Part shown: piece by piece, positions 50,617 through 59,836 of the stretch
How positions within the stretch are numbered: position 1 is the first letter of the stretch
Layout of the letters: each line of letters starts with the position of its first letter
NCBI GenBank assembly: GCA_019058245.1
Contig: JAHPZJ010000030.1
Location: 155,294 to 219,293, forward strand
Length of the DNA: 64,000 nt
Direction of reading: 5' to 3'
Source: Promethearchaeota archaeon
GTDB lineage: Archaea > Asgardarchaeota > Lokiarchaeia > Sigyniarchaeales > SOKP01
Made by a program: the position numbers and the translations under genes
Notes under the pieces: model-generated
The model's database searches: none
What the model was told of the DNA's origin: nothing
Seen by the model: only the letters and a program-made list of their open reading frames with translations

Positions 50617-52041
50617 GTGATCCAAAAAATGGAAAGTGGAACTAAACGAATAGTAGCAATTGTTCTTATTGTGGTTATAATTGTTGGTGTCGGTTTAGGG
50701 GTGTGGTTTATCTTAATACAACCAACATCCCATGGCTGGACAACCCCAGGAATCTCAGGTATACCAGAAGAACGATGGATCAAGATCGGAATGATGGGTG
50801 ATAGAGGTGAACTTGAAGGTGATCAAAATTGGATGGGTGGTTACCTATCAGCGAGGAAAATAAATGAAGCTGGTGGTGTTACCATTAATGGTAGCCAATG
50901 GGCTATTGCCCTTTCATGGGAAGATACGGACGAATCAGCTTCGGATTTCTCTACATCAAGAGCTGTTGCCGCAGCAGAGAGAATGGTATACAAGCAAGAG
51001 TGTGATTTTGCTGTTGGTGGCTTCAGAACAGAATCCTTACTAGCCTACCGGGAACCTTTCATGACCAATAAAATACCCTTTTTGATTACAGGAGCAATGA
51101 CAGACATTTTTTGCACAGATGTCGAAGATAATTATAACACTTATAAATATACTTTTAGAATCAGTCCTTACAACTCATCACATTCGTCTTCGGCTTTTGT
51201 AACAGCAGTACTTTATATGTATGGATATCTCCGAGCCGTATATGGAAGTGATGATGTTAACCATATGGGTATATTAGCAGAAAATCTCGCTTGGACAGAG
51301 GGTATACGAACTGTCGTCGCTGCTTATATAGATGGAACGTATGGCGCGGGAACTGTACCCTCAGATGGAGTTATTGCTTTTGATCCAGAGGTTACTCCAA
51401 CAATTATGAATAGCAACTTAGAACAATTAGAAGATGGTGGATGTGATGTAGTACTTATAGCAATTTCGCTAGGTGCTGGACTTACAATGACCCAACAATG
51501 GGCACAACATCAACGAAAATTCTTATTATTTGGTTCTAATGTTCAAGCCCAAACAGCAGGATACTGGGATAAAACTAATGGAGCTTGTAATTATGAAATA
51601 GGATCAACGACAGCCACAAGATGCAATAAAACCCCAAAGACTATCGAAGCTTATGATGATTTTATTGATACCTTTGATGAACATCCTATTTATATAGGAT
51701 TTGGTGCTTATGATGCTGTAAGTCTTATTGCAGAAATATGCGAAGAAACGAATTCAATTAGTGCAAATGATTTTATAGCAAAAATGGAAACATTTACTAT
51801 AGATAATCCTAGACATGGTGGTGCTGGTGGTGACCCCACCGCTTGGTGGCCCACTACTCATGACCTTGTTGCTGGGTATCAAGGAGGAACCCTTTTCGCA
51901 TATGGTATCTGGTTTCAGTGGCAAAACGGTACTAAAACACTCATTCCCTCATTCACAAGCCCACCACAATACCCAAGTACTCTATCACCAATGGGCACAT
52001 TGAAAATACCTGATTATTTTGGTTGGGATTATGGAGCATAG
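50617..52041 (+). CDS. membrane-anchored type-1 PBP ABC substrate-binding protein (Leu/Ile/Val-binding-protein family)
   Basis: 474-aa ORF with a GTG start (alternative ATG at 50629) and an N-terminal TM anchor. IKIGMMGDRGELEG...YLSARKINEAGGVTINGSQW fits the LivK-family N-terminal pattern. Composition is more GC-rich than the neighbours. Confidence 0.7.
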   Translation: MIQKMESGTKRIVAIVLIVVIIVGVGLGVWFILIQPTSHGWTTPGISGIPEERWIKIGMMGDRGELEGDQNWMGGYLSARKINEAGGVTINGSQWAIALSWEDTDESASDFSTSRAVAAAERMVYKQECDFAVGGFRTESLLAYREPFMTNKIPFLITGAMTDIFCTDVEDNYNTYKYTFRISPYNSSHSSSAFVTAVLYMYGYLRAVYGSDDVNHMGILAENLAWTEGIRTVVAAYIDGTYGAGTVPSDGVIAFDPEVTPTIMNSNLEQLEDGGCDVVLIAISLGAGLTMTQQWAQHQRKFLLFGSNVQAQTAGYWDKTNGACNYEIGSTTATRCNKTPKTIEAYDDFIDTFDEHPIYIGFGAYDAVSLIAEICEETNSISANDFIAKMETFTIDNPRHGGAGGDPTAWWPTTHDLVAGYQGGTLFAYGIWFQWQNGTKTLIPSFTSPPQYPSTLSPMGTLKIPDYFGWDYGA

Positions 52042-52967
52042 GCTACAAAACATCAAATAATAATACAACTAAATATTTTACAAAATATCTTTTTTTTTAT
52101 TTATTTTCTTTTGGTTGTTAAATCAAGATTATTTTAAAATTATTCAATCATATCTCAATATTTTTTGTCTAATAGAAGGAATATTTCTTTCTTTCACAAA
52201 AAAGGATATTAAAGAATCGAATTAGTGAAAAATAAAAAGTTTATATAATCAAATTAAATAATAAAATCATATTCTTATAAAAAGGAATACCATTTCACTG
52301 GTTTTTTATAGTTTTTATTCTTTATGGTAATGTTTTTGCTTAAATTTTAATCAATAACAATCCAATTATTTATAAATATTCTTAGCTTTTTGGAAAATTC
52401 ATAATTCATATTCTAAATATCGATCTTTCCTTGAGAGATAGAATTAGCCCTATAGTTGTCAGATTGTTGGATTATCGCATAATTTAATAGCTACTCATTA
52501 TTTACTATTTTTCCGATATTTCCAATTTGTTAATGGACGATAGCCATCAATCTTTAAAAGTAGATACTTTTTAATAGAAAATCTAACCTTTTTCAAATAA
52601 ATTACAATATCTTTGATTTATGAGAGTAGTTATTTTTAATTAATGAGAAACATCTCATAATTTTATAAATCCTCTGAGAGTTTTCTTAAATGTTAATATT
52701 AAAAGAGAAACATAAAAATGGAAAAGTAAATTTCAAGAAATTATAACATTATTTTAAAAATGAGGTTTGAATTCAATAGAACTTGGAGATTCACCTAAAT
52801 TGATATCATTTAATTGAAAATTGCGCTAAACAACTTTAATTTCACAATATTATCTTTATTACAATTCTGTAAATTACTTCACTCCGAAAAAAAATTTAAA
52901 TGGAGCAGAAGATTTATAAAAGATGTAAGAGAAATATTATTATTAAAAAACTTTGGAGTAGATTATT

Positions 52968-57861: not shown

Positions 57862-58135
57862 AGAAGATCTTAAGATAAAATTTTAACAATTTATTTAAAA
57901 ACTTTTTAACAATTTAGAGAATTTAAAAAATAACTTATTGAATCTTAAATTCAATTTTTATTAACAAAAATCCAAAATTAATTGATTTTTTACAAAGAAT
58001 ATCGTCTTTATATTTTCTAACTATTTCTTAGTAAAATTGAATTAAAGATCAGCCATAACCTTATTATTGGATCGAAATTTTTATTAATATTATAAATGTA
58101 AATTTAAAAATTATACAATAGATGGTTTTAAGAAA

Positions 58136-59836
58136 ATGAGTGAAACTAATCCCTATGCAAGTAAACCTTGGTTAAAACATTATGATGAAGGAGTTCCAGC
58201 TAGTATTGATTATCCTGAAATTAATATTAGTAAATTTTTAGATGATTCAGCAAAGGAGTTTGGAAGTCGATCAGCTATTTGGTTTTTGAAAGAGAAAATC
58301 TCTTATAAAAAGTTAAAAGATTTCACTGATAGGCTTGCTACAGCATTAGTAGACTTAGGAGCTAAAAAAGGTGATGTTGTTGCTCTAATGATGCCAAATT
58401 TTCCTCAATTTATAATAGGTTATTATGGTATTTTGAAAGCAGGAGGTATTGTTACTTCAGTAAATCCTCTATATACAGAACATGAATTAGCATACCAATT
58501 AAATGATGCAGGAGCAGAAATAATAATTGTCTGGGATAACCAATTAGATAAAGTATTAAAAGTAAAAGAAAGAACTCGTCTCAGATATATAATCATTTCC
58601 AATGTCTTTGATTTTGCTCCAAACGCTAATCCTCTCGGTAAAAGAGAACCTCCTGAAATCGCTGGAACATTGCAACTATTAAATCTGATAAATAAAACCA
58701 AACCTAAACCTCCTAAATTTGAAACAAATGCAAAAGAAGATCTAGTATGCCTTCAATATACCGCAGGTACTACAGGATTACCCAAGGGGGCAATGCTAAC
58801 ACATTATAATATTACATCGAACGTTTATATGGCTGCAGAATGGGTTAAGAATGTACTAACAAGGGGGAAGGAAACTACTCTTACCAGTATGCCTTTAGTT
58901 CACATTTATGCCCAAACAGTCTGTATGAATTTGGGTATATATCAAGGATCAACTCTCGCTTTACATCCTGATGCCAGAGATCAAAGAGCTTTATTTGAAA
59001 TAGTAAAAGCAACTCATCCTACTGCTTTTCCTGGTGTACCGACGTTTTATATGCGATTATTAGAACGCGATGATCTTGAAGATTACGTTAAAGATCTTAA
59101 ATCACTAAAAGTTTGCAATACTGGTGCTGCTCCAATGCCTCCAGAAGTTCTAAATGAATTTGAAGAAAGAACCGGAGCTGTTATTTTAGAAGGATATGGA
59201 ATGACTGAAACTTCACCATCAACAATTTCCAATCCATTCGGAGGACAAAGAAAAATTGGTTCTGTTGGACTCCCATTTCCTGATACTGAAGTTAAGTTAG
59301 TTAATATTGAAGATTATAACCAGATCGTACCTCAAGGGGAATCAGGTGAGATAATGATAAAAGGACCTCAAGTTTTTAAGGGTTATCTTAATAAACCCGA
59401 AGCCACCGCGAATCAATTAAAAGATGGATGGGTTCTTACAGGTGATATCGCAGTAATGGATGAAGATGGCTACTTTTTTATCGTAGATAGAAAGAAAGAT
59501 ATGATTAATGTAAGTGGATTTAAAGTATTTCCAAGAGAAGTTGAAGATCTATTATTTGAACATGAAAAGATAGAAAAGTGTGCTGTTATTGGGGTTCCTG
59601 ATACTCTAAAGCCTGGAAGTGAGAAAGTAAAAGCTTACATTGTATTAAAAGATGATTTTGCAGAATCACCAGAAATAGAAGCTGAAATAAAAGAATATTG
59701 TAGAAAAAATTTGTCTCCTTATAAAGTACCAAAATTTTTTGAATTTAGAAAAGAACTTCCAGAATCTTTTACAGGAAAAGTTCTTAGGAAAGATCTAAAA
59801 GAAATTGAGGCATCGAGAAGAGGAGAAGAAATCTAG
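58136..59836 (+). CDS. AMP-forming acyl-CoA synthetase, paralog 2
   Basis: 566-aa ORF with YTAGTTGLPKGAMLTH, EGYGMTE, TGDIAVMD and KVPK. It is colinear with and highly similar to 10667-12448. Confidence 0.85.
   Translation: MSETNPYASKPWLKHYDEGVPASIDYPEINISKFLDDSAKEFGSRSAIWFLKEKISYKKLKDFTDRLATALVDLGAKKGDVVALMMPNFPQFIIGYYGILKAGGIVTSVNPLYTEHELAYQLNDAGAEIIIVWDNQLDKVLKVKERTRLRYIIISNVFDFAPNANPLGKREPPEIAGTLQLLNLINKTKPKPPKFETNAKEDLVCLQYTAGTTGLPKGAMLTHYNITSNVYMAAEWVKNVLTRGKETTLTSMPLVHIYAQTVCMNLGIYQGSTLALHPDARDQRALFEIVKATHPTAFPGVPTFYMRLLERDDLEDYVKDLKSLKVCNTGAAPMPPEVLNEFEERTGAVILEGYGMTETSPSTISNPFGGQRKIGSVGLPFPDTEVKLVNIEDYNQIVPQGESGEIMIKGPQVFKGYLNKPEATANQLKDGWVLTGDIAVMDEDGYFFIVDRKKDMINVSGFKVFPREVEDLLFEHEKIEKCAVIGVPDTLKPGSEKVKAYIVLKDDFAESPEIEAEIKEYCRKNLSPYKVPKFFEFRKELPESFTGKVLRKDLKEIEASRRGEEI

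Follow-up and report, generated by a model that had tools for sequence, protein, structure and literature searches.

Liv-type ABC importers are textbook five-component machines, and the locus described here raises the question of whether one group of them works with a sixth part. We analysed a stretch of 64,000 nucleotides (nt) from a Promethearchaeota archaeon (assembly GCA_019058245.1, contig JAHPZJ010000030.1, positions 155,294 to 219,293), hereafter the window, in which positions 50617-59836 hold seven genes, all on the plus strand, in the order substrate-binding protein (SBP), livH, livM, livG, livF, HEAT-repeat protein and acyl-CoA synthetase (ACS). What does a protein made of HEAT repeats do between the last transporter gene and the ligase gene? 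An earlier sequence-only reading of this DNA proposed that it is an accessory subunit, a cytoplasmic adaptor or scaffold that might hand the imported acid to the ligase or regulate the ATPases. The gene order, coordinates and identities given there match the gene calls and our Pfam and NCBIfam profile searches of the window proteins, and its spacings are exact (an overlap of 17 nt between livG and livF, and gaps of 11 nt before the HEAT gene and 274 nt before the ACS gene). On the comparative evidence presented below, the HEAT protein very probably contributes to the work of the uptake system, as a part not described before, and does not stand there by chance.

The gene arrangement is conserved far beyond chance. 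Using the window proteins in tblastn searches, we compared 90 related loci, 80 of them from genomes scanned at one per prokaryotic species and 10 from contigs reached via six HEAT orthologues, which are 41-66% identical to the window protein and carry Loki, Thor, Heimdall or Odin labels. Each of the contig loci reads (SBP)-livH-livM-livG-livF-HEAT-ACS, and the order livG-livF-HEAT-ACS is kept at every one of the 90 loci as far as the contig reaches. The outer flanks vary among the contig loci, with genes for DNA polymerase B, GH20, acyl-CoA dehydrogenase, CdhD and others, and identities across the Asgard loci range over 70-98% for LivG, 66-93% for LivF and 62-97% for ACS. Adjacency conserved in no relative had been named beforehand as a ground against an accessory role; livF-HEAT-ACS was found at all relatives examined. 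Moreover, the metagenome-assembled genome DZ3M.111 carries two diverged copies of the module (L017 and L033), with HEAT proteins 60% and 57% identical to that of the window. Because both copies are complete within one genome, the whole SBP-livHMGF-HEAT-ACS module is duplicated there as a unit.

The association was also approached from the transporter side, with metagenome loci fetched by LivF similarity. Wherever LivF was at least 73% identical and downstream DNA was available, the HEAT gene came next in all cases; where LivF was at most 50% identical, it came next in none. The apparent exception, L109, is chimeric, with the first 27 HEAT codons placed 6 nt after livF and followed by unrelated sequence. 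Positions 357-560 of that locus hold the livF end, the 27 codons and then sequence resembling bacterial lipoprotein or TPR genes. Three loci (L110, L111 and L113) have livHMGF followed by ACS with no HEAT gene between. Since such HEAT-less clusters exist, the Liv and ligase module is present elsewhere, and HEAT is therefore an Asgard-specific insertion into it. L113, a metagenome contig of higher G+C content outside the Asgard family, carries at positions 2118-8383 the genes SBP-livH-livM-livG-livF and an ACS gene that overlaps the livF end. When LivF homologues were searched, the 120 best matches listed were all orthologues with 77-93% identity, and the named ones were from Asgard archaea only.

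The distribution of the HEAT protein itself agrees with that of the module. In a search of 5.8 billion proteins, its orthologues formed a tight set of 446-542 residues with 40-66% identity (41-87% when the genome scan is included), and the named ones were labelled Loki-, Thor-, Heimdall-, Odin-, Hel- or Promethearchaeota, that is, Asgard. Below this set identity drops sharply to generic HEAT proteins of 600-830 residues with 25-30% identity. Two proteins of this second tier (25-27% identity) were looked up and neither adjoins liv or ACS genes. Relatives occur in at least 139 of the species-level genomes, the best 80 of these 139 being all Asgard, and the named close homologues of the window proteins come from Asgard archaea in every case. 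By sequence similarity, then, the protein represents a discrete orthologous family confined to Asgard archaea.

How tightly the gene is tied to its neighbours can be judged from the junctions. In 73 of 82 loci, 7-14 nt separate the livF stop from the HEAT start, and a motif resembling a Shine-Dalgarno sequence (GGTG, GAGG or AGGT no more than 15 nt from the HEAT start) is present in 63 of the 64 distinct junction sequences, mostly as GGTGAT at or just past the livF stop codon. Upstream, livG and livF overlap by 17 nt at most loci. There is no room for a promoter or a terminator in the livF-HEAT junction, and therefore livF and HEAT must be co-transcribed; the two genes are probably also translationally coupled, as judged from the junction sequences. 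The sequence-only reading was likewise exposed to the finding of a separate promoter and terminator between these genes, and what lies there is a spacer of 7-14 nt with a conserved ribosome-binding site. The gene thus holds a conserved, co-transcribed position inside a transporter operon across lineages, as an accessory subunit would, and comparative genomics could hardly give stronger evidence of a functional linkage.

The junction with the ligase gene is more variable. In 20 Thor-type loci the HEAT-ACS spacer is 12-22 nt, with 31 nt in one more, and the 12-22 nt spacers imply a single transcript at Thor-type loci. At most other loci the spacer is 62-97 nt long and AT-rich, and the longest reaches 559 nt. 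The 274-nt spacer of the window may be an archaeal terminator and promoter region. A scan of positions 50300-60500 for bacterial-type promoters and terminators gave counts no higher than expected from shuffled sequence, the models being bacterial and the host archaeal.

Pfam finds HEAT_2 and HEAT_PBS repeats throughout the HEAT protein. Its AlphaFold2 model is an all-alpha continuous solenoid of about 13 repeats (pLDDT 92, pTM 0.81), with low confidence only at loop residues 330-360. By sequence and by fold, its matches in the PDB are only generic protein-binding solenoids, namely alphaRep designs, karyopherins, the PP2A A subunit and beta-catenin. Conservation over 76 distinct orthologues is uneven along the surface. 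Positions equivalent to the hypervariable binding face of alphaRep have a mean conservation of 0.73, against 0.60 for the other non-core positions. The binding face of repeat 2 reaches 0.96 (W74, S75, R78, E79, R82 and N86), repeats 6, 8 and 11-13 are also high, and the binding-face residues vary from one repeat to the next. Such a conserved, predicted concave face has the signature of a surface for a specific partner. The first 60 residues, which are not part of a repeat, are conserved as well (0.74). A C-terminal HDxCDYVCE motif was considered as a metal site and rejected, both cysteines being missing in several orthologues.

Many members of the family carry what look like membrane anchors. 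These are one or two strongly hydrophobic segments of 19 residues (Kyte-Doolittle values of 1.9-2.9) inserted between repeats near residue 300, and they were found in about 10 of 82 genome loci and in 19 of about 33 full-length protein clusters. The hairpins are of several types unrelated in sequence, and in some proteins (P0028, P0031) there is a second insertion site. The main site falls after residue 296-300 or so, which in the window corresponds to roughly 57310-57330, just upstream of the variable loop. As a two-helix hairpin, the insertion would leave both halves of the solenoid on the same side of the membrane. That membrane anchors were gained repeatedly argues that the HEAT protein works at the membrane. 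The variable loop (residues 328-362), present in about 30 of the 76 orthologues and only in Loki-type ones, has a predicted amphipathic helix at residues 342-355. This helix is a weak candidate for a membrane anchor, since its hydrophobic moment is 0.56-0.58, when ordinary HEAT helices reach 0.74, and it is missing from the 446-residue forms.

Which proteins the solenoid might contact was addressed through co-variation. Pairwise-distance matrices were computed for the seven proteins over 40 complete loci, and they form two blocks, one of SBP, LivH and LivM and the other of LivG, LivF, HEAT and ACS. In these matrices, which are not corrected for kinship, the partial correlations of HEAT are 0.54 with LivG, 0.43 with ACS and 0.37 with LivF, and from -0.16 to -0.28 with SBP, LivH and LivM. 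The mean distances are 0.54 for HEAT, 0.64 for the permeases and 0.24-0.26 for the slow cytoplasmic proteins. As the fast HEAT protein tracks these slow proteins, rate class alone does not explain the pattern. By this measure HEAT groups with the cytoplasmic half of the module, whether through co-evolution or through swapping of parts.

The ACS gene lies one gene downstream of livF, with HEAT between. This is so in the window and at each related locus long enough to show it, and in this way a CoA ligase is consistently linked to the importer. Its top NCBIfam models are long-chain-fatty-acid-CoA ligases (531.7 bits for PRK05605, cut-off 766; 518.6 for PRK06710, cut-off 1116), and it also falls under the cut-off of the pimA model with 364 bits. 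With scores below the NCBIfam cut-offs, it was not accepted as a FadD equivalog and is assigned only to the AMP-binding superfamily. Its relatives in the PDB include 4-coumarate-CoA ligases, FadD-1 of Archaeoglobus (A. fulgidus) and FadD5. It is from the ligase alone that we infer an organic acid as the imported substrate.

Taking these lines together, we hold it an even chance that the HEAT protein is a cytoplasmic, membrane-proximal scaffold or accessory subunit tying the LivG/LivF ATPases to ACS. In the mechanism that we propose, the Liv-type (HAAT-family) importer would bring in an organic acid chosen by the membrane-anchored SBP. The HEAT solenoid, which would be made in fixed proportion to LivF via translational coupling, would sit at the inner face of the membrane, bind the LivG/LivF dimer with its concave conserved face and hold the ligase beside the transporter exit. 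The FadD-like ligase would then turn the imported acid into a CoA thioester, which would link uptake to activation in the manner of a vectorial-acylation metabolon. The physical contacts and the direction of the hand-off are what we infer here. In its most complete form, with HEAT as a stoichiometric bridge between the LivG/LivF dimer and ACS in an ABC-importer-driven vectorial-acylation machine, ancestral and confined to Asgard archaea, the proposal is a tentative one.

Several observations weigh against this scaffold. The majority of HEAT orthologues are without a membrane anchor, and the 446-residue Thor-type forms are also without the amphipathic loop. Runs of five or more T occur in 29 of the 47 mid-length (62-97 nt) HEAT-ACS spacers, and the longer spacer of the window is AT-rich too; at Loki-type loci, including the window, the ligase may thus be transcribed separately from its own promoter or be attenuated. 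The co-variation could come instead from recombinational swapping of the SBP and permease half between modules. No LivF-HEAT or HEAT-ACS fusion was found among the 120 best matches of either family. As to the substrate, there are no beta-oxidation genes within the window, and the Foldseek matches of the SBP are about equal for binders of leucine, 4-hydroxybenzoate, p-coumarate, pyroglutamate and urea, at 10-17% identity, which does not discriminate the ligand class.

In another reading, HEAT regulates the transporter only, binding LivG/LivF and gating ATP hydrolysis, for instance halting import when the pool of acid or acyl-CoA is high, with no docking of the ligase. MalK, MetN and ModC have regulatory domains or partner proteins, to which such a function may be likened. 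The tightest and most invariant link of the HEAT gene is indeed the one to livF, with its short spacer and conserved Shine-Dalgarno sequence, its strongest co-variation is with LivG, and many lineages have a longer, terminator-like spacer before the ligase. However, the ligase is still always the next gene and co-varies with HEAT (0.43), and neither Pfam nor the fold search detected a ligand-binding or sensor domain in the solenoid. We regard regulation alone as rather unlikely.

It is also conceivable, and in our judgement unlikely, that HEAT serves the ligase only, stabilising or regulating ACS or passing the acyl-CoA onward, and stands after livF merely because of the shared operon. HEAT-ACS adjacency is as universal as that of livF and HEAT, the spacer is short in the 20 Thor-type loci, and there is the co-variation with ACS just mentioned. 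Against it, the repeated gain of hairpins points to the membrane, which is not where a soluble ligase would be expected, short of a coupling to transport. In addition, livF-ACS pairs without HEAT exist, so the ligase generally needs no such partner, and the livF junction is more tightly constrained than the ACS junction.

That HEAT is an assembly or stability chaperone of the transporter or, in a variant, an unrelated operon passenger such as an adaptin-like trafficking protein is improbable: solenoids do bind proteins generically, and the protein passes the Adaptin_N gathering threshold (68.6 against 37 bits), adaptin being a category among the Asgard eukaryotic signature proteins (PMC9834061), but that match covers residues 351-458 only, and neither a coupled junction of 7-14 nt and an invariant position, kept in at least 80 species whose flanks differ, nor duplication along with the module, as in L017 and L033, would be expected of a passenger.

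The features of the locus are listed in the table. The G+C content of the DNA is about 28%.

Features of the Liv-HEAT-ACS locus and its upstream neighbour (positions in the window)
Feature	Position	Strand	Description
Giant polytopic membrane open reading frame	41844-50444	+	2866 residues, ~75 hydrophobic segments
SBP gene	50617-52041	+	Pfam Peripla_BP_6 (PF13458), E 2.9e-16, 60.5 bits vs cut-off 31.7; N-terminal transmembrane helix
Non-coding spacer SBP/livH	52042-52967	.	926 nt, AT-rich
livH-type permease	52968-53861	+	BPD_transp_2 (PF02653), E 5e-36, 124.7 bits
livM-type permease	53895-54935	+	BPD_transp_2 (PF02653), E 5e-40, 137.7 bits
livG-type ATPase	54979-55719	+	ABC_tran (PF00005) and BCA_ABC_TP_C (PF12399); top NCBIfam match LivG
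livF-type ATPase	55703-56416	+	ABC_tran (PF00005); top NCBIfam match LivF, 227 bits vs cut-off 441
livF-HEAT junction	56417-56427	+	11 nt, contains Shine-Dalgarno sequence GGTGAT
HEAT-repeat alpha-solenoid protein	56428-57861	+	477 residues, HEAT_2 E 1e-75, 7 matched stretches, ~13 repeats
Variable loop of HEAT protein, residues 328-362	57409-57513	+	pLDDT 61-69; conservation 0.23
HEAT/ACS spacer	57862-58135	.	274 nt, AT-rich, several T5-T6 runs
FadD-like acyl-CoA synthetase (ACS)	58136-59836	+	AMP-binding E 3e-97 and AMP-binding_C

The SBP is membrane-anchored and has a type-I periplasmic-binding-protein fold (AlphaFold2 pLDDT 83, pTM 0.84), with an N-terminal helix at residues 4-30; the corresponding NCBI gene call (P0241, 100% identity) begins at the ATG at 50629. 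Its predicted fold matches LivJ/K-type proteins with TM-scores of 0.72-0.80, normalised to the target (Foldseek), and a sequence search of the PDB gave no relative. The spacer that follows its gene, on which the sequence-only reading is silent, has no open reading frame of 60 residues or more and no Rfam match. Because of this 926-nt spacer, and because the SBP gene is in the opposite orientation at about 9 related loci, the gene is probably a separate transcription unit, linked to the cluster, with the spacer as the likely boundary. In the relative L001, the place of the spacer is occupied by a second SBP gene and an open reading frame of 101 residues with a weak match to the C-terminus of Mu transposase, which hints that insertions and rearrangements happen readily between SBP and livH.

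Upstream of the SBP gene lies the open reading frame of 2866 residues, for which no Pfam family was matched and in which internal repeats are suggested. At 33 of the 90 related loci its C-terminal half immediately precedes the SBP gene in the same orientation, with 41-87% identity; these are Loki-, Hod- and Hermod-type loci, and it is absent at Thor-type loci. Possibly this frame is one more conserved neighbour of the module, with an uncertain place in the system. On the other side, the ligase gene is followed at 60421-63048 (plus strand) by genes for an aldo/keto reductase, a PadR-family regulator and a radical-SAM protein, a trio also seen after the ligase gene in the close relatives L011, L012, L018 and L031, and not generally. 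Farther upstream, positions 25104-38009 hold two more ABC importers with no HEAT gene alongside, one of them phosphate-like (PBP_like_2 binding protein, fused permease, ATPase and a PhoU/MazE-domain protein). Rfam also recognises a tRNA of 101 nt at 22168-22268 (plus strand, 53.6 bits), presumably with an intron, that ARAGORN does not report.

Compared with known systems, the transporter has the same five parts as LivJ/K-HMGF of the HAAT family (TC 3.A.1.4), that is, a Peripla_BP_6 binding protein, two BPD_transp_2 permeases and two distinct ATPases, with the LivG-specific C-terminal motif. It differs in that the SBP is anchored by a transmembrane helix and in the extra conserved cytoplasmic HEAT protein. 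Judged by its domains and profile scores, it shows all the architectural features of the HAAT family and is not an orthologue of any characterised system. An orthologue of the branched-chain amino-acid transporter of the E. coli type was rejected, all components scoring below the equivalog cut-offs (LivH 84.5 against 379, LivM 78 against 366, LivG 180.5 against 362 and LivF 227 against 441 bits), and the livH product is also below the NCBIfam equivalog cut-off of UrtB, from the urea system.

For the HEAT protein, the closest similarity in the repeat unit is to the PBS-lyase HEAT-like proteins (CpcE/CpcF, NblB) and to alphaRep, which share the 31-residue HEAT_PBS/HEAT_2 unit, alphaRep giving the best PDB matches by both sequence and fold. 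The gene context of the PBS-lyase proteins is wholly different from that of the Asgard module. Membership among the phycobilin lyases or NblB was rejected on scores (NblB 119 against 300, CpcE 95 against 330, and 58 against 220 and 67 against 600 for the CpcF and CpeY models), and to our knowledge Asgard archaea have no phycobiliproteins. A HEAT solenoid is also paired with an ABC-type ATPase in the N-terminal HEAT domain of eEF3 and in GCN1 with GCN20. This is an analogy only, as the ATPases eEF3 and GCN20 are ABC-F proteins that associate with the ribosome and do not transport; the weak Pfam matches of the HEAT protein to HEAT_EF3_N and HEAT_GCN1_C reflect generic repeat similarity.

A true adaptin was rejected as well. 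Adaptin_N is passed by the score of the whole protein, the best stretch aligns to profile positions 82-195 of 524 only, and the fold search gave generic solenoids. Since the gathering threshold is nevertheless passed and 'Adaptin N heat repeats domain' is a listed category of Asgard eukaryotic signature proteins (PMC9834061), members of this family may have been miscounted as trafficking proteins in such lists. Caution is advisable before an Adaptin_N or HEAT match in an Asgard genome is taken as a sign of trafficking machinery, and if the bridge between the ATPases and the ligase is real, some 'adaptin-like' Asgard signature proteins would really be adaptors between transport and metabolism. 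The module pairs an enzyme that activates acids or fatty acids with a HEAT solenoid, and so bears both on how Asgard archaea take up and use fatty and organic acids and on the roles of eukaryote-like repeat proteins.

Import paired with an acyl-CoA synthetase is the concept of vectorial acylation, as in FadL-FadD of E. coli and the mce1 operon with fadD5 in mycobacteria. The present module shares this concept, with a transporter of another family; we know of no solenoid adaptor in vectorial acylation systems. If the scaffold proposed above proves true, a sixth conserved cytoplasmic component would change the understanding of the Liv-type family, and the module would offer a definite example in which transport and the first step of metabolism are physically joined.

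The nearest precedent is in Rhodopseudomonas palustris, where Liv-type ABC systems lie beside CoA ligases: CouP/RPA1789-1793 with the p-coumarate-CoA ligase RPA1787, and RPA3723-3725 beside pimA (PMC3223731). The background assumed in the sequence-only reading, that Liv-type systems occur next to such ligases, is therefore documented in this bacterium and is also borne out by the HEAT-less loci L110, L111 and L113. Branched-chain amino acids are not among the ligands of the R. palustris Liv-type binding proteins, which bind aromatic, fatty and dicarboxylic acids (PMC3223731). In these systems, too, the importer is genetically linked to an acyl- or aryl-CoA ligase, but they are bacterial, have no HEAT gene between and have had their ligands measured. 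In our literature search, no publication was found that connects a HEAT protein with livF or with an Asgard module of ABC importer and acyl-CoA synthetase, and the term 'HEAT repeat' is absent from the census of Asgard transporters (PMC7997004). A Liv importer beside a CoA ligase is already known, and what is new is the solenoid. If it does bridge transporter and ligase, it would be the first known case of a solenoid adaptor subunit among prokaryotic ABC importers, and membrane-proximal scaffolding by alpha-solenoids, elsewhere typically a eukaryotic trait, would have a prokaryotic representative.

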